Below are positions 16,305-52,404 of a stretch of 64,000 nucleotides of DNA, piece by piece. The first letter of the stretch is position 1; each line of letters begins with the position of its first letter. Source of the stretch: Octopus vulgaris (lineage: Eukaryota); contig OX597828.1 of NCBI GenBank assembly GCA_951406725.2, forward strand, positions 31,372,001 to 31,436,000, written 5' to 3'. Made by a program: the position numbers and the translations under genes. The notes under the pieces were generated by a model. That model did not search any database and was not told the DNA's origin. It saw only the letters and a list, made by a program, of their open reading frames with translations.

Positions 16305-17295
16305 GAGCCAGTCTAACAACATCAACATCAAACGAGGCATCTTTCAAGGTGACTCCTTCTCCCCATTAGTCTTCTGCAAGACACTGATCCCACTTTCAAA
16401 CGAACTGAGTAACACCAGGCATAGGTTCCAAATGTATAATATTATAGTAAATCATCTGTTTTATATGGACGATCTGAAACTGTTTTCTAGAAATGCCGAA
16501 GAGCTAGTAGGGCTGTTAACAACTGTTAAAGAGTTCAGCAATGACATCGGGATAGATTTGGGCCTTGATAATTCTGCTAAAGCAGCTTTTATAAGACGAA
16601 GGCTCAAGCATACAGCTTCCTATAAATTAGATGCCGACACTACCATCAATGAGCCAACTGGAAGCTATAAATACCTGGTGATAAACGATGGAAATGGTAT
16701 ATCGCATGCTACTATGAGGGAAATAATTTGAAAGGACTGTCATAGAAAAAACGACACATACTAAAGACGGAACTCAACTCCAATTATCGCATCGAACTCA
16801 TTAACACCCACAGTTTTAACATCACTAACTGACAATTATTAACATCTAAGAACATGCACCAACGAAAAGGAGACGCTGATCGAGTGTACTTAACTAGAAA
16901 TAATGGGGAAGGGGAATAATCCAGGTAGAATTGTGCTACAGGACTTCTACTATAAGAATGGACAAATACTTATTAAGTATAGAGGACTGGATGCTGAGTC
17001 TTTTGTGCAAGCCCGACAGCTGCAAAAAGTCCCATCCTATTATCATGGAAGCTTGGAAATTTTCAAGGGAACTTGGCATTAGCCCTGAATCTGATGAAGA
17101 TCCTGCAACCAAGTGCACGAAAAGAACCAAAACGCATCAAGGAGACTGCAAAAAAGAACGGGTGGAAACAAACTGAATAGCGGTGGAGCCAGAGGCCTGT
17201 GCTTGGACAGTATATATGTCGAAGTTTAAATGTTGATGTAAGCGAAGAAACAACCCATCAGTGGCTGAGAAGTTCAGCACTGCAGGGCTGCACAG
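16304..17295 (+). mobile_element. R4/Dong-clade non-LTR retrotransposon RT fragment next to (TAA)n
   Basis: INIKRGIFQGDSFSPLVFC...NHLFYMDDLKLFS...YKYL motifs, with frameshifts and stops downstream; directly preceded by (TAA)n at 16248-16303. Confidence 0.85.
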
Positions 17296-24435: not shown

Positions 24436-27400
24436 GGACTCTGCTCATGGATTTCAAAGAGGAAGGGCATGTGCTCGTGAGTTAATGTTCAATTTTTACA
24501 GACAATATTGTTGTATCTAAAAACTTTTACAACGGTTCTGACTCTAGGCCGACTGGGCTCTTGCTTAGCCGAGCGGTTAGTCGGAACTTTTACCCTTTTG
24601 GGGGGTATTTTCAATTTAAACTCTCAATGTTTTCATCCAAGCCCTCTCACCACTACCACTAACACTGACACCTTTAACACACACAAGAACAAAAACAACC
24701 CAATGCATTAAACAGTCGAGGTTTTGCTTCAATTGGAAAACTTAGCGTTGAATTCATTAATGTTTCAGTAGAATCTCCCAAACACCACGGAAACATATTA
24801 AAATGAGGGAAAGATGTGTTTCGATAAACACACCTCCAGATATTATAGGCAAGACAAACAAACGTACCGTAGTGTACAAAACTATATCTTTAAAAAGTAG
24901 ACGTTTAGAAACCGCCATAAAAAAAACTTGTCCGAATTCCAACATACCTGGGACAGAGGGACACCAGGATAAAAATACTGGCGCTACCGCCAGAAATGAA
25001 CGTTGCTGGATTGTCCCATTCGCCCTCCTCGACTTGGAAGATAAAATCAGAATCATCCAAGTCGAGAAACAAGGAAAAGGCAACTGGACTGGTCAGGAAT
25101 TACACATAATAATCAAAATAAACCAAGACATTTGGGAGCAAATTCCTGACCAACTCAGCCTTCCAGATGGCTGTATGCTGAACGTCACAGTTGAGGGAAG
25201 GAGACTAAGAAGATATCAATGCGGACAGAATAACCACTTGAAAGCCTTCTGCCCACAACTAAAACAGAAGGTGGGCACCACCTACACCACAACAACTGAA
25301 GCAACCTCAACAATAAAAGCAATCCCAATAAGAGAAGAAAACCCAAGAAAAGAATGCAGAGTGGGCTGCAGCAAAAACACCACCACCACTAACAACAACA
25401 ACTACACGAAAAACAACAACAGAGGTACTGACCACAACCCTCACCACAGCGCATACAAAAACCCAAACAACATAGCTTTTGCCAGAGGAACAAAAAACAT
25501 CAGCAAATTGCGACCCACTGGAACTACCCCTTTCTGAATCTGACCACCCCACATATCGCGCGGAGACTAAGAAAAGGACACAACAGTGCAGCAACAAATA
25601 AATAAGCTGTAACTCTAAAAAAGCAATGAAAATCACCCGAAAACAAGAACAAGAACACACCAAAACCCACGCTTCCAATACCTTCACCAACACCACAGAA
25701 ACAACCAACAGTACAAGGTACAACAGAGTCAACGAAAAAAGTAGACTAAAACAACAAAAACACCACAAAACTCACTGCTATAAACACAGACATCACAAAC
25801 TTACTATTATACATGACGAAAAATACAGACATGAATATGACAGACTTTGCTATCTCCACGGGTACAGATACTTTGAACATCACATCATACAACAACACAA
25901 AATCCAAATTTCCATAGGCGGTTGGAGGCCTCAACACAAAGTGTACTGGAGCCTCTATAAATCCTTGGTAATGGAGACGACCACACTCCACTTAAGGAAC
26001 GGGACATCTGCCCTGCTCCCATCCTAGAGTAAGTAGTCCTCTGGTTTTTCTCCTTACCAGCTCAAAATTGGTTGCATTAATATACGTGGACTGGGGTCCC
26101 CTTTGAAACAAGGTCACCTACTCAACAACCTCAGGTGACGAGGAATAGATGTAATAGCCATTACTGAATGCACACTAACCGAACCGCGAGCTTTCTTCCC
26201 CATTTTAGATAACTACGAGATCTACAAATTTCCATGTCGGGGGCATATCGGTGGTGGAGGTACTGCAGTATTGTTTTGGAAAGGACTGGTTCTCAAAATA
26301 AGGTCAGCCCTCTTGGACCTAGAAGATAAGACATAGAAAGTCATGGATACGAATAGTATGAAGGTGGGGCCTTCAGACCGATGTCTGTTTACGCATCGAC
26401 AGGTGCAGGACAGCCGGAATACTTCAGCTGTATGGGAGTGGGAGATTTCAACGCTATTTTAGATGCACAATTGGATTATATCGGGGCTAACCGATAGGAA
26501 TGATGGTTGCAAAAGCCTCGCAAACCTGCTCAGACACGTTCAACTCTCTGACAGATACCAACTGGATTTCCCGAATGTGCCAATGTGGACATGGGCAAAC
26601 CGCATCGGAACATCCAGGACGTATCTAGATAGAATATTTTGCAGGTCTTTAGATTGGGTTAGTATTACTAGTCCACAATTTCAAATCGTCGGCGACATAA
26701 ATAAAAAATTGGTGACATGTGAGGTCGACTTAGATAGCAGACGAAGACAGGACCCCGACAACTGGCAGCTAAACATGTCACACCTGGCGTGACAAGATTA
26801 CAGAGACCAGAATAAAGAGTTAGTTCAGAAAGCTTTGACGAGGGTAATTGTCAACGATAAATGATGATATTATCTAAAAAGGGTCATCAAAGTAGAATTT
26901 GTAGATTTAGCAAAGTTATAACGGTAGAAAGATACATATTAGAGGGAGATTTACTGAGTAAATTAGAAGAGGCACTTAGGAAAGCAACTGACGTGCTGAC
27001 AGCGAGGTCAGCCCTCGATGAACACTTCACACTAAGAACGAAATTTGCATGACAGAGCTAAGGCACGTTCTCTGAGATATGAGGGAACAAATGCTGCCCG
27101 AGAGGCCCGAGCGGCTGAGGCACAGAATGGCTACAAAAACACCATTCGGTCTTTGGTGGACTAAAATAAGCGCAGGGTGAGCGACCTGGAGCAGATGTGT
27201 GCGGCTTTTTAGCAGCATTTTGCCGAATTATTCCCTGGGCCACATCGGAGGATGCATTTTACTGCCCACCTCGATGGCCTTCCACGACTCTCAGCAAGAT
27301 ATGTGGAGTGTTACAAAAGGCCGATAACAATTCAGGAAATACGGGACGAGATAATGGGCTGCAAAGGCTTTATTCTATTATGCCAAAGTAATTTGCAGGC

Positions 27401-28574
27401 TTCTTGTCAGATATTTACTGCAACTGGCAACAGAATGACTGAATTCCCAAATCTGCGAGCCTAGGAGCAGTGCTACTGCTGCGAAAGGATCCAAACAAGG
27501 GGGAAGTATTAAATAATACTATGACTATCAATATGCTTAATGATGACATGAAAATGTTGGTCAAAGTGTTAGCGAAGAGGTTGGCGCTAGGGGTCTAGAA
27601 ACTGGTTGGAGATGCACAAACATGCACCATCCCAAACAGGCCCCTCCACGTCAACCTCCACCTCATGCGCTACATAGTGCATAGGGTAGTTAAAAAACGT
27701 TGCATGCTTGGTCCTCTGATTCATTTAGATCAGTCAAAAATCTTTGATAGTGTTGACCATCAATATCTGGCGGCTGTTATCACGGCGGCCGTTTGGGGTC
27801 CGTTTTTTCGCGGTTGGAATATTGCCATGGAAAGTGACACTTGCTCAGGAGTCTGGGTGAATTTTCAACTATCGCACCCATTAAACATCGTGCGTTCGGT
27901 CCGTCAAGGGTGCCCACACTCGTCTCTTCTGTATGCTCTGATCCCCGAGCCATTACTTCGGAAACTGGAGTCGTTGAGAGGCATTCCACGTGCACTAGGA
28001 TGTGGGAGAGTTCTGTCGGCCCGAGATGTGCGCAGAGCGACGAGACCGTTCTGCTCGCAGTCATCCAGATATGCCCGAGCATATCTAATATATTGGTTTA
28101 TGTCGTACACCCGCATTTACGAGTAGGACGTATCCGCTTGTTGGCTGATTCGATTATGAAGATTGCGCAGCCGCCTTCCTTTGGCCGGCAAGGGAAGGCA
28201 ATTTTCATTTGTTTCGTGGCTGTAGGGAAAGAGTATATGTGGTGGTCCAGAATGAAAAGGTGCAGGACAAATACATTTTTCACATACTATCTGAAGAAGG
28301 AAGTGAGGGTTGAGACAGAAGTGCTGACTTTCAGCAATTTTGTTAAAAGGTGGGTGGATGTGGAGAAGATGGTCCGAGTCAACCATCTGTGAGTAACGCA
28401 TTTGAATTTCCAAGGCTGAGTGAGAGGGAAAGATGGGGAGAGGGCTGTTGCCCTAGTGGTCGTGGCGCTTGTGGATTTTTCGTGAGGTCTCTTTTAGGCA
28501 TTTTCTTTGTTATATCTTTCATTGTTATTGACTTTTTACACGACACTTTATGTAACTCCACTTTGTCCTTCAGG
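24436..28574 (+). mobile_element. Tx1/L1-clade LINE, decayed, with internal deletion
   Basis: ORF1-like 24803-25537 with a degenerate zinc knuckle (VTVEGR..RRYQCGQNNHLKAFCP). APE motifs from ~26055 (LKIGCINIRGL, GDFNAILD, WTWAN..GTSRTYLDRIF). RT motifs (TINMLNDDMKMLVKVLAKRL, LDQSKIFDSVDHQYL, SVRQGCPHSSLLYAL.PEPLL). Both ends abut ATT repeats. Confidence 0.9.
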
Positions 28575-43292: not shown

Positions 43293-44274
43293 GTGCCTCA
43301 ATTTTTGACGTTATATTTATTATATTTTTGCAATGTATGTATATATTGATGTCTACACATATACATATATACATATGTGTACATTTGTGTATGCGTCTAT
43401 TTTTCTCCCAATCTACGTAACTATTCGTTTGACTTAATACACACTTACACTCAAATATACATAAGCACATACATACACATAAGCATGTGCATGTGTATGA
43501 GTCTGTGTCTCTGTGTAATTGCGTCTGTATGTGCGTGTGCTTATGTGTTTATACCCATAACGCTTTGCAATGAAAATTATACGAATATAAAAATAAATAA
43601 CAAGTCTCGTTACTGCAAAATACTTTCATGCTGGCATTAAATCAAACTCATTACATTTGTTTCTTTCAAATACTAGTATTTAGCTAGCATAACATTTTCC
43701 GTATAAGATCATCACCCATTTAATTAGTGCCAATTAAGTGACGTCACCTACCCTTTCGGCTCTTCAGTATTTCTTTAATCGGTATCTATTTCTGAATAGC
43801 TTCCGATTGTTTTATCAATATATTTGCCTCAAAATATCCAAGATAAATATAGTAGTTAAAATTCTATGCGAAATATAAAGAATTATAAGGATTAAACTAA
43901 TAAAAATATGAACTTGTACATTAGATTGAAACATTGGAGCATATATCTGCCGTTTATTCCGTATTACATCCTTTCTGTTGCATACTTTAATATAATTTCC
44001 AATGTTAAATTAAAAATGTATCGTAGTTTCACGTTGTAAAGCTTCATAGGGAGACAGTCGCATACCGCTGCCAAAATAGCATATTTATACGGGCTTAATT
44101 AGTTACTAACAAATCAATATTTAACAATGTCAAACTTTGAAACAACTCATTAACTAGTATGCCATTCTCCAGGAAATGTAGTTTATTTTGTATGTGTACC
44201 TATTACGTTTGCGTGTCTGTATACACATATGTGTTTGCGTTTGTGTGTGTGTGTGTGTGTTTTGTGAGTACGAT

Positions 44275-44430
44275 TAATGTGTGGATGTGCTGTAAGAAGT
44301 TAACTTCCTAATGAGATGTTTCCAATTTCAGGCGCACTACGTCGAACCTTGGGCACATGTTCTAAGCTTTCAGGTACGCCTAAGCCTTCTGAATGGATTT
44401 CGTAGATGAGAGCTAGATGAAGCCCGTTGC
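44275..44430 (+). mobile_element. SINE family A, old 5' fragment
   Basis: Diverged version of the adjacent copy (gtaagaag...accttgggca...aagcctt.tga.tggattt.gtaga...gaagcccgt). Confidence 0.7.
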
Positions 44431-44449
44431 ATATATACATACATACATA

Positions 44450-44979
<530 letters not shown>

Positions 44980-45069
44980 TGGCAGGGCTGGCCTGCTAGG
45001 TAGCCGGCCAGCTAGCCGGTTTTAAATTGATATTAATATTAATATTAATTTATCTCCCTCAATTTTTAA

Positions 45070-45127
<58 letters not shown>

Positions 45128-45374
45128 CAAAATGATGGATGCTGACATGGATGACTTTGATTATCACCTTGATCAAGGTGACCAAGGTGATAATAAAAAT
45201 GTATGTATATATATAATCAAAATAAGCAACAGGATATCCAGAGTATATCCTGTTGCTTATTTTGATTTTAATCAGCTTACTTTGAAACCGTATAGATAAT
45301 ACCGTATTAAATTCTGGTGCCTCAACTTAAATACCTAATTCATTTGAATCTAAATGTCTGCTATACATACATAC

Positions 45375-45424
<50 letters not shown>

Positions 45425-45427
<3 letters not shown>

Positions 45428-45534
45428 CTGCTCGCTTAGCCAGCGGGGTGGCATCGTTTGAAGGCTAAAACAATGCGAACGCATTGTGACCAGCGATGTG
45501 TAACAACATCTGATGGTCTGGTCGGTCACGTGAT

Positions 45535-45540
<6 letters not shown>
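45425..45540 (+). mobile_element. Isolated SINE 3' tail (same as the tail of the 51860 copy) within (TA)n
   Basis: ggcctgctcgcttagccagc.gggtggcatc...ggtctggtcggtcacgtgatcacgtga. Confidence 0.85.
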
Positions 45541-45577
<37 letters not shown>

Positions 45578-45677
45578 GGAGTAAGCGCATAAAAGTGAAA
45601 CAAGGTGGGGAAAAGTACTCAAATACCAGAGGTAGAGTAATATGATTTATTTAAAAGCAGCAGAAATATAGCAAAAG

Positions 45678-45715
45678 CTGTCACTTGGAGTTTCAAGTTC
45701 CTATTCGACGGACAG
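45678..45715 (-). ncRNA. Decayed second copy of the U4C hammerhead-like motif (see 45911-45948)
   Basis: Minus: CTGT CCGTCGA ATA GGAA CTT GAAA CTC C AAG TG ACAG. Confidence 0.5.
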
Positions 45716-45910
45716 TTTTATTAAAATGGATCGTAGTTCCATACTGCTCGTTGTAAAGATTCACAGGGACACAGTCGCATACCGATGCCAAAATATCTTT
45801 TTTATACGAGCTTAATTAGTAAAAAATCAAGATTTAACAATGGCAAACTTTGAAACAACTCACCAACTAGTATGCCATTCTCCATAAAATGCAATTTATT
45901 TTGTATGTTT

Positions 45911-45948
45911 CTGTCCGATGAAAGGAAACGTGAAAGTCTGAGTAACAG
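45911..45948 (+). ncRNA. Minimal type I hammerhead-like motif (U4C variant)
   Basis: CTGT CCGATGA AAG GAAA CGT GAAA GTC T GAG TA ACAG: stem I CTGT/ACAG, core, tetraloop stem II, GAAA, stem III, GUA site. Confidence 0.6.
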
Positions 45949-45984
45949 CTTGTTTTATTTTATTTATGCTTCTTTTAAATAAAG

Positions 45985-46015
<31 letters not shown>

Positions 46016-48739: not shown

Positions 48740-48949
48740 CGGGAAAGTTTATGAAAATAAACAAAAGACGAAGGCAGGTGGAGTACAAGCAAACAAATGT
48801 ATTAGTATAGCGCTCAGGAATAGAAATAGAAAAGTCTTTTACATTTCGAGCCTACGCTCATCGACAGAAAGATACACAGAAAAAAAAACAAGGAGAGAAA
48901 CAAGGAGAGAAAAAATACGTGTAGGAGCTAACGATCTATCATAGCGTCC

Positions 48950-49365: not shown

Positions 49366-51606
49366 TTCGAAAATTTTCAAAAAAAATTTTAACCAAAAAT
49401 TTTAACCAAAAATTTTTCGAAAATTTTCCATACATTGTGATTTTGGCACCGTTGAACTTGTGATCTTTCGAAAATTTTCACCGAAATTTTCTCCAAAAAT
49501 TTTTCAAAAAATTTTCACCGGAAATTTTCCTCGAAATTTCTACGAAAATTTTCACCGAAAATATTTTCCAAAAATTTTTCGAAAATTTTACCCAAAAATT
49601 TTTCGAAAATTTTCCCCAAAATTTTTTCGAAAATTTTCAGCGACAATAATCCCCCAAAATTTTTGAATAATTGACACCGAAAATTTTCCCCAAAAATTTT
49701 AATTAAAAATTTTTCGAAAATTATACCCAAAAATTTTTCGCAGAACTCTTTCGAAAATTTTACACAAAAATTGTTCGAAAATTTTACTCAAAAATATTTC
49801 GAAAATTTTACCCAAAAATTTTTCGAAAATTTTCAAAAAAAATTTTAACCAAAACTTTTTCGAAAATTTTCCATTCTTTGCGATTTTGGCGCCGCTGGCT
49901 TTCCATACTTTGTGATCTTGGCACCGCTGGCCTTCCATACATTGTGATTTTGGCACCGCTGGCCTTCCATACTTTGTGATTTTTCGAAAATTTTACGCAA
50001 AAGTTTTCCTAAAATTTTCAACAAAAATTTTACTCAAATTTTTCTAAAATTTTCACCGAAAATTTTCCCCAAGAATTTTCCGAAAATCTTCACCTAAAAT
50101 TTTCCCCAAACATTTTTCGAAAATTTTCACGGAAAATTTTCCCCAAAAGTTTATCACATATTTTCACCGAAAATTTTTCTAAAATTTTACCCAAAAAATT
50201 CTTCGAAAATTTTCACCGAAGATTTTACCCAAAATTCTTCGAAAATTTTCACTAAAAATTTTCACTGAAAATTTTCACGGAAAATTTTACCCAAAAATTT
50301 TTCGAAAATTTTCAACGAAAATTTCCCCCAAAAATTTTTAGACAATTTTCACCGAAAATTTTAACCAAGAATTTTCCAAAAATTTTTGGATAAAATTTTC
50401 TCGAAAAATTTTTCGAAAATTTTCAACAAATATTTTACCCAAAAATTCTTTTAAAATTTTACCCAAAAATTTTTCGAAAATTTTGAACGAAAATTTCCCC
50501 AAAAATTTTTAGACAATTTTCACCGAAAATTTTAACCAAAAATTTTCCAAAAATTTTTGGATAAAATTTTCCCGAAAAATTTTTCAAAAATTTTCAACAA
50601 AAATTTTACCCAAAAATTTTTGGAAAATTTTCAACAAAAATTTTAACCAAAAATTTTTCGAAAATTTTACCCAAAAATTTTCCCAAAATTTTTTTTTAAA
50701 TTTTACCCAAAAATTGTTCGAAAATTTTCACCAAAAATTTTTCGAAAATTTTCAACAAAAATTTAGCCAAAAATTTTCCGAAAATTTTACCCAAAAATTG
50801 TTCGAAAATTTTACCGAAAGATTTTCGAAGAATTTTTGGGTAAAATTTTCCAAAATTTTTGGATAAAATTTTCGGGGAAAATTTTCGAAAAATTTTACAG
50901 GAAAATTTTCACTGAAAATTTTACACAAAAATCTTTCGAAAATTTTACCTAAAAATTTTCACCAAAAAATTTTTAGAAAAGTTCCACCAAAAATTTTACC
51001 CAAAAATTTTCAGAAAATTTTCAACAAAAATTTTCCCGTAAAAGTTTTTGAAAATTTTTGAAAATTTTCCCCGACTATTTTTCCAAAATTTTCACCGAAA
51101 ATTTTACCCAAAAATTTTCCAAAAATTTTTCGAAAATTTAACCCAAAAATTTTTCGAAAATTTTCAACAAAAACTTGAACCAAAACTTTTTCGAAAATTT
51201 TCACCGAAAATTGTGCCAAAATCACAAAGTATGGAAGGCCAGCGGTGCCAAATTCACAAAGTATGGAAGGTCAGCGGTGCCAAAACCACAAAGTATGGAA
51301 AGCCAGCGGTGCCAAAATCACAAAGTGATTTTTCGAAATTTTCTACAAAACTTTTCCGAAAATTTTCCCTAAAAATTTATCGAAATTTTCACCAAAAATT
51401 TTCCCCAAAAATTTTCCCCAAAAATTTTTCGAAAATTTTCACAAAGTATTGAAGGCCAGCGGTGCCAAAATCACAAAGTATGGAAGACCAGCCGTGCCAA
51501 AATCACAAAATATGGAAAGCCAGCGGTGCCAAAATCACAAAGTATGGAAAGCCAGCGGTGCCAAAATCACAAAGTGATTATTCGAAAATTTTCCCCAAAA
51601 TTATTT
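49366..51606. repeat. Satellite of ~10-12-bp AAAATTTT units with embedded 32-bp subrepeats
   Basis: Continuous (c/cc/cg)aaaatttt units; 32-bp unit ttccatactttgtgattttggcaccgctggcc at 49869/49901/49933/49965, reverse complement at 51213/51245/51277/51309 and 51440-51577. Confidence 0.95.
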
Positions 51607-51861: not shown

Positions 51862-52165
51862 AGGCGCAATGGCGCAGTGGTTAGGGCAGCGGACTCACGG
51901 TCGTAGCATCGCGGTTTTGATTCCCAGACCGGGCGTTGTGAGTGTTTATTGAGCAAAAACACCTAAAAGCTCCACGAGGCTCTGGCAGGGGGTGGTGATC
52001 TTTGCTGTACTCTTTCACCACAACTTTCTCTCACTCTTCCTTCTGTTGGCCTGCTCGCTTAGCCAGCAGGGTGGCATCATTCGAAGGCTAAAACAATGCG
52101 AAGCGCATAGTGACCAGCGATGTGTAGCAACATCTGATGGTCTGGTCGGTCACGTGATCACGTGA
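51860..52165 (+). mobile_element. tRNA-derived SINE family C (tail type 2)
   Basis: tggcgcagtggttagggcagcggactc...gattcccagaccgggcg...agctccacgaggct...actctttcaccacaactttctc + ggcctgctcgcttagcc tail. Confidence 0.92.
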
Positions 52166-52404
52166 CATATATAAGTGAGATGTTGGTAACAACCTTGAAG
52201 AATGCTGAGCGAAACCCATTGTCGTCCATAATTACAGGCTACACTACTTCGTCAACGGTATACATGCAAATAATACTGGATATTCACCAGGAATTCCTTA
52301 GTAACTACGGAGTGTGTATATAGAATTGACAGAAATAGGAATCAACGGCATTCTTCATTTTAAACACTCCAGTTGCTTCACGCATTCTCCCACTTACGAG
52401 ATGG

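Follow-up and report, generated by a model that had tools for sequence, protein, structure and literature searches.

In the Hydra clade of Penelope-like elements (PLEs), as described in the accessible part of PMC8557442, the hammerhead has a 4-bp CTGT/ACAG stem I and an ACTCnGAGT stem III near the 3′ end, the target of the families is (TA)n, one end may carry an optional tail (30–40 nt), and inverted 5′-truncated copies occur. File S2 of that source contains the hammerheads of Hydra-2_aMil and Hydra-2_aJap, which combine a CTGT-type stem I with GAA ACTCnGAGT A and ACAG. In vitro, both strands of an AT-rich target are cut by a PLE protein and then extended, and reverse transcription has two start sites, which define the tail (PMC11167929).

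Comparable arrangements are known from several other systems. In the Penelope elements of Adineta vaga, head-to-head pLTRs occur of which one is tailed, and non-coding host sequence is found between solo pLTRs; capture there is described as in trans or is, in the accessible text of PMC3846280, of unstated origin. The dual minimal hammerheads of Schistosoma lie on opposite strands 100–700 bp apart, and were read as truncated PLEs (PMC4209133, available portion). In LINE-1 templated insertions, the cDNA end copies and duplicates a short piece of nearby DNA: the accessible part of 10.1101/2024.08.27.596794 gives 22 cases in a tumour set, as a rule <250 bp long and with a template no more than 15 bp from the insertion site; that of PMC11702581 adds three more. 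Non-LTR retrozymes, as outlined in the available text of 10.64898/2026.07.22.740005, are non-coding and PLE-derived with a type I hammerhead, and form head-to-tail tandems with hammerheads on one strand.

The locus described here is a cassette of two inverted arms around a spacer. It shares with the Hydra clade the hammerhead stems, the target, the one-sided tail and the inverted truncated copies; it differs from the elements in the accessible part of PMC8557442 in having C at core position 4, a shorter stem II and a longer tail (~64 nt), and in that the pair encloses a local copy and no coding DNA. Like the Adineta vaga pairs it is head-to-head with one tailed arm and has non-coding host sequence in the middle, whereas its source lies in cis, 1.7 kb upstream and in direct orientation. 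It resembles the Schistosoma pairs in its gross arrangement, with hammerheads on opposite strands, and in its size range, and the LINE-1 templated insertions in its copy of short nearby DNA; the latter involve another element class and, as far as the accessible texts describe them, a template within 15 bp and no two-ended head-to-head pair. Like the retrozymes it is non-coding and PLE-derived, with hammerheads of type I; unlike those tandems, it is a single head-to-head pair, and a retrozyme identity was rejected on finding one inverted pair and no tandem unit in the window. A PLE head-to-head pair joined by a templated bridge of local, cis origin was not found in the literature accessible without subscription. 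The cassette can be explained by combining two known processes.

Structure of the cassette

The window (the whole stretch of 64,000 nucleotides that was analysed) has the composition of AT-rich animal DNA, in which microsatellites and SINE-like repeats are abundant; the sequences of the latter look octopus-like. Decayed ORF pieces at 16306–16731, 24761–28450 and 56770–57460 have a by-eye likeness to remnants of non-LTR RT and mariner transposase. A big array with units of 12–13 nt (TTCGAAAATTTT-like) occupies 49366–51450; it contains an inversion near 50770, and its outer arms (49876–50018 and 51183–51325) are inverted.

The cassette is framed on both sides by (TA)n, with unstranded tracts identified using TRF at 45541–45575 on the left and 45985–46013 on the right. 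Because both flanks are (TA)n, a target-site duplication is unreadable here. The two arms (45640–45715 and 45911–45989) are inverted and align over 79 columns with 74.7% identity (blastn E 2e-9 to 7e-9). They are arranged head-to-head, with their ends facing outward, and each begins with a degenerate minimal type I hammerhead.

The right hammerhead (45911–45948, plus strand) was located by a motif scan and a covariance model, and is truncated precisely at stem I. It reads CTGT CCGATGA AAGGAAACGT GAAA GTCTGAG TA ACAG, and is followed by a T-rich segment (45949–45985, plus strand, from the alignment), a short tail-less 3′ end that goes into (TA)n. The left hammerhead (45678–45715, minus strand), which is predicted to be inactive from the covariance model and inspection of its core, reads CTGT CCGTCGA ATAGGAACTT GAAA CTCCAAG TG ACAG. 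The T-rich segment 3′ of it (45640–45677, minus strand) is common to the right arm by blastn and alignment. Beyond this segment the left arm has an optional 3′ tail of ~64 nt (45576–45639, minus strand) that the right arm is without, as indicated by the alignment, the family depth and the tails of relatives. The tail has a CTCTAC...GAGTACT stretch resembling the tails of Hydra-type relatives; in public contigs, family depth reaches into it and the reads continue into TA/CA. On the other side of the left hammerhead, the stretch 5′ of it (45716–45726, minus strand) is also family sequence, as judged from the loose-end consensus before 45911 and from family contigs that extend to 45719–45727. The extent originally given for the left arm was too short: the arm really spans 45576–45726, with the ~64-nt tail and ~10 nt of family sequence added.

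Searches of the window with blastn, nhmmer and a motif scan found no additional copy of the family, an arm or the spacer.

Degenerate hammerheads of Hydra type

A covariance model trained on 27 related hammerheads, whose E-values are rough, gave 12 matches in the window, with the right arm ranked first (E 0.0007) and the left arm third (E 0.038). Together with the alignment of the arms, these ranks bear out the original prediction of inverted arms with a hammerhead at each inner end. The match ranked second, 48836–48871 on the minus strand (E 0.018), is a different hammerhead-like relic, which probably belongs to another PLE family.

When compared with the canonical core CUGAnGA / GAAA / UH, the right hammerhead has U4 changed to C, and mismatches in stems II and III. 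The left hammerhead has three core changes: U4 to C, A6 to U, and H17 to G, the last in the cleavage triplet. The majority letters of the family in public contigs restore the cleavage triplet and stem III letters of the left arm at 45682, 45686 and 45687. Judged from these defects in core and stems, both ribozymes look dead. MFE folding did not recover the hammerhead fold in either arm, and neither arm beats its shuffles (z −0.41 and −0.95); when the whole cassette is folded, the two arms pair with each other, as any inverted repeat would. Rfam gave no hammerhead at the gathering score, and none on the cassette at E up to 10. One transcript has only one sense hammerhead, because the two sit on opposite strands. 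The earlier description of a ribozyme-flanked cassette is thus too strong, given hammerheads on opposite strands, damage to both, and a cassette that is single-copy.

The 3′ half of the hammerhead matches two Hydra-clade consensus ends in the supplement of PMC8557442, and in its shape (CTGT / GAAACTCnGAGTA / ACAG) the arm hammerhead agrees with those of Hydra-2_aMil and Hydra-2_aJap from the same material. Identity with Hydra-1_Obim was rejected, since the hammerhead published for it in that source has a different sequence. The cassette has the features of a Hydra-type 3′ end: a minimal type I hammerhead (degenerate here), a (TA)n end, a one-sided tail, and an inverted 5′-truncated partner. 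At core position 4 the two arms each have a C (45916 and 45710), compared with 0 of 135 among the relatives' matches listed, which were found with a pattern permitting C. This C may be a natural variant of a high-copy family, or a private change common to the pair.

The spacer and its likely upstream source

The spacer (45720–45910, plus strand) is a direct, ~10%-diverged copy of 44009–44197, as identified by blastn and contig coverage. The blastn alignment pairs 45723–45908 with 44013–44195 in direct orientation, over 190 columns at 84.2% identity (E 1.7e-56), and upholds the claim that the spacer is a diverged direct copy of upstream DNA. The differences comprise 19 substitutions (8 transitions and 11 transversions) together with three indels, which are 7, 4 and 1 nt long. 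The source segment (44009–44195, plus strand) is likely to have been the template of the spacer; it is seen in the blastn comparison, in an X2 contig, and as an orthologue in organism D. It now lies 1.4 kb from the left arm and ~1.7 kb upstream of the spacer.

The homology between spacer and source begins and ends close to the two arm junctions, in each case only a few bases away. At the left junction, TTAAAA is common to 45721–45726 and the start of the source (44010–44015), a 6-nt microhomology that is likely to be that of the switch; inspection of the junction letters on the right, between spacer and arm, revealed no microhomology. The match of the spacer ends to the arm junctions, together with the left microhomology, indicates that neighbouring DNA was copied into the insertion. 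Copying in the reverse direction, from the cassette to the upstream site, was rejected, since both ends would have to hit the junctions by chance. The right flank and the DNA past the source have only a low-complexity TG tract in common, and we left this continuity out of the evidence.

The DNA between the source and the cassette (44196–45575, unstranded; self-blast and TRF) consists mainly of repeats and microsatellites: a TG tract, two SINE-like copies, TA tracts, and short elements embedded in TA. From this content, the source and the insertion site may formerly have been nearer each other. One short element, at 45424–45549 and set in TA tracts, is 94.5% identical to another copy at 52047–52173, and its family looks younger than the cassette. 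A near-perfect hairpin with arms of ~22–26 nt and a loop of 5–7 nt lies at 45211–45270, within the TA-embedded segment 45126–45378.

Copy number in public contigs

Four of 24 public runs were compared with 45566–45996 at 80% likeness. These were contig sets of organisms A (the same species, run X2), D (a close sister species) and E, and the raw reads of X21. The contig records matching the cassette numbered 1,853 in A, 1,915 in D and 2,140 in E, nearly all of them on the arms. Depth summed over the X2 contigs is 9–60 on the spacer, ~1e3 where the hammerheads end on the inner side, and up to 7e5 on the arms; such sums are not equivalent to copy number, and depth and holes in contigs prove little. 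The bulk of the spacer is covered in X2 by only two contigs: one of 324 nt (depth 9.27) with exactly the sequence of the cassette, and another of 999 nt (depth 17.1) that carries the upstream alleles of the source. The spacer is hence neither high-copy nor part of the family consensus, either of which had been named in the original prediction as grounds for abandoning it. A MITE-like mobile unit was rejected because the interior, under two contigs only, is not multi-copy.

The contigs of the family also show where it ends. Twenty-three of them part from the spacer at 45911; the sequence that they have in its place is heterogeneous (agreement 0.53) and ends in TTAACAAAA, and when reverse-complemented it matches 45716–45726 at 10 of 11 letters. 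At other arm–arm joints in the contigs, the middles are short or different. From these sequence comparisons, the identification of the arms as 3′ ends of a very abundant family with a hammerhead of Hydra-PLE type is supported. Compared with the majority letters of the family in the public contigs, the left arm has ≥11 differences over ~125 positions. In the X21 raw reads (~3% of the run) there were 6 matches on the arms and 0 on the spacer, far below the expectation from contig depth.

Besides the two contigs, the spacer bears two short pieces, one of ~37 nt at depth 33 (X2) and one of 29 nt in an arm-bearing contig (X14, organism E). The 29-nt piece carries the alleles of the copy. Ungapped chance matches of 24/29 were absent from 1.2 Mb of simulated DNA; the contig alignment behind the piece permits gaps, and joints with sides of <30 nt are unreliable.

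Related loci in metagenome contigs

Scans with the exact motif gave 0 matches in viral contigs and 0 in a first metagenome scan. With a relaxed pattern, metagenome contigs yielded at least 120 loci of related families, and flanks were retrieved for 80. Among the matches listed (120 loci), 89 are solo arms, 29 are head-to-head pairs, none is tail-to-tail, and 2 are same-direction pairs; 26 of the 29 head-to-head pairs look distinct. Of the head-to-head pairs in this list, 18 of the 19 that could be scored consist of one tailed and one short arm (10 were unscorable), or 15 of 16 after removal of 3 probable duplicates. Solo arms in the list are tailed in 27 of 81 scorable cases, and under random pairing a hand calculation puts the chance of the 15/16 result at ~5e-5.

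Several other properties of the matches listed bear comparison with the cassette. Their tails are ~70 nt long, near its ~64 nt, and a cut-off just 5′ of stem I is frequent. The spacers of the pairs are mainly <40 nt and made of element pieces. Target duplications of 13–15 bp were seen in 5 solo relatives. In young pairs the arms are 94–100% alike, with a median of 100%, in a search that favours young copies. Among the same matches, no distant local copy adjoining the hammerhead junction was found in 130 relative arms by blastn, and none of ≥16 nt in 75 by exact match; three distant matches of 13–15 nt among the 75 were taken as chance. The cassette is a common PLE product with a rare bridge.

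Some of these loci have junctions of other kinds. L117:71-175 is a head-to-head pair with a 104-nt spacer, and is the best candidate for a second captured bridge. In L012, L013, L029, L030 and L099, the head-to-head junctions consist of short, scrambled copies of the 5′ end of the hammerhead itself, a fill that resembles repair-type templated patches. L025:3914-4169 is a perfect palindrome, including the flanking DNA, in which both arms are short; it is a foldback or an assembly artefact.

An open ORF of 722 amino acids lies between two same-direction arms in L068:74-2643, apparently a full-length Hydra-type PLE, as is L048. The ORF has the motifs RWR, DKT, YRDD, CxCx5C and VYIG, which fit the Hydra description in the accessible part of PMC8557442. 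Searches of Pfam and PDB with it gave no matches, and its Atlas neighbours are animal clusters in which a minority of the members have GIY-YIG or RVT_1. An autonomous ORF for the cassette's own family was not found; L068 and L048 belong to a related motif class.

Proposed mechanism

On balance we favour a single event, in which each end of one break would have primed synthesis on element RNA, and a templated insertion that began at a microhomology would have connected the two cDNAs. The TA tract would first have been cut by the element endonuclease. The left end would then have been primed at the long start that gives the "tail", and the right end at the short start, in keeping with the observed geometry of the arms; both cDNAs would have halted just 5′ of the hammerhead, like many relatives. 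The end of the left cDNA would have annealed through the observed TTAAAA to the start of the source and been extended by ~190 nt, and the resulting bridge would have been joined near-bluntly to the right cDNA at CTGT. The bridge could have been synthesised by the RT or by a host repair polymerase, and on a template of DNA or RNA. Subsequently the arms and spacer would have decayed, with younger TA-seeking repeats probably accumulating between source and cassette. Priming at two ends is suggested by the extension of both strands and the two RT start sites observed in vitro (PMC11167929).

The original prediction was of an RT template switch between copying two pLTRs. Its idea that the insert was copied from neighbouring DNA stands; the idea of a single RT run disagrees with the head-to-head geometry. 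A run from pLTR RNA to DNA and back to pLTR RNA is disfavoured, since copying the second arm would require a template in antisense, and priming from both ends of a break would be simpler.

The single event primed at both ends is favoured by the contrast in copy number between arms and spacer, the Hydra hammerhead, the head-to-head pairs with one tail among relatives, and the source orthologue in organism D. As in an L1-type templated insertion, there is a short copy of nearby DNA at a junction, here 190 bp long, direct, and with a 6-nt microhomology; compared with the L1 template distance of ~15 bp, the present gap is 1.4 kb, chiefly of repeats and microsatellites. We count this distance and the lack of right microhomology against our reading, along with an arm–arm divergence greater than that of spacer from source (young pairs of relatives being 94–100% alike), the lack of any distant local copy of ≥16 nt at 75 arms of relatives, the two short spacer pieces, the scarce X21 reads, the tension between old age and half depth in X2, the absence of a cassette piece in organism D, and the absence of an autonomous ORF tied to the family.

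Alternative explanations

Two independent events would be another origin, which we consider unlikely: a solo tailed arm would have inserted together with an unusually long target-side duplication of 190 bp, and a short arm of the same family would afterwards have entered where the duplicate ends. In line with this, divergence between the arms (18/79) exceeds that of the spacer from its source (19/~183; Fisher p 0.012), the TA-seeking family is very abundant, and the right junction shows no microhomology. However, target duplications in relatives are only 13–15 bp (5 loci among the matches listed), and head-to-head pairs with one tail are the normal product of a single event. The C at core position 4, common to the two arms and found in 0 of 135 of the relatives' matches listed, likewise counts against this reading.

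It is about equally improbable that the spacer was templated by RNA, the RT having left the element RNA for a minus-strand transcript of this locus, either host or read-through, of which it copied 190 nt. There is a precedent in the host DNA between pLTRs and the template jumps on read-through RNA proposed in the accessible text of PMC3846280. If the 8 transitions arose in the copy, then read on the minus strand every one of them is A>G or C>T (post hoc, exact p 0.005 for symmetry), though the substitutions are unpolarisable and 11 of the 19 are transversions. Moreover, only with nascent RNA would capture in trans lead one to expect a source as near as 1.7 kb.

The age of the insertion raises a further possibility. 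The cassette is ~10% diverged and looks old, as the differences of its left arm from the family majority and of its arms from each other (18/79) also indicate; its half depth in X2 and the lack of a cassette piece among the contigs of organism D fit badly with this. Long single-locus contigs in X2 have depths of 17.1, 18.8 and 20.8, compared with 9.27 for the cassette contig, for which there is no second allele. Organism D has the orthologue of the source with source alleles, and no cassette piece was seen among its 1,915 contig records. Over 88 nt, the D source piece has 13 differences from the cassette compared with 11 for the source of A, and therefore A and D differ by at most ~2% here; at a rate of 2/88, the probability of 19 or more differences in 183 is 5e-8. 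We see a slim chance that these observations reflect a recent, polymorphic insertion, with the ~10% divergence of arms and spacer made during low-fidelity copying. The extreme variability of PLE hammerheads, which the available part of PMC4209133 leaves unexplained, would accord with this, as would the asymmetry of the substitutions (exact p 0.005, post hoc). Against it, young pairs among the relatives' matches listed have arms 94–100% alike (median 100%, in a search favouring young copies), and the 29-nt piece with the copy's alleles in organism E would, if real, imply an old copy. Contig depth and holes are poor proof, X2 may represent the source sample, and inverted arms that lie between TA tracts would plausibly be prone to deletion.

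Finally, we regard it as very improbable that the spacer derives from a low-copy repeat or from sequence further upstream in the element itself, with the match at 44009–44195 a separate relic: the two short extra pieces (X2 and X14) and the lack of 24/29 chance matches in simulated DNA would allow it, but the alignment behind them permits gaps and is unreliable for short joint sides, most of the spacer lies under two contigs only, the family contigs diverge at the junction, and the sole long second copy is 1.7 kb away and ends at both junctions.

Implications

We conclude that the cassette is likely to be a single, old, dead scar of a Hydra-type PLE insertion, to which we attach no function. 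Pairs of inverted pLTRs, pLTR-framed host DNA and templated insertions of L1 have all been published already, and a lone relic alters little. Its importance would be much greater if the insertion were young but mutated: two-ended Penelope integration would then be a hypermutagenic process of local duplication, which could account for the diversity of PLE hammerheads, and the dating of repeats from their divergence would be wrong. The value of the cassette is mechanistic, in that a tailed and a short arm, head-to-head and connected by a bridge copied in cis, are a prediction of two-ended priming with repair-type joining. The copy number of the family is sufficient for a genome-wide test of two-ended priming.
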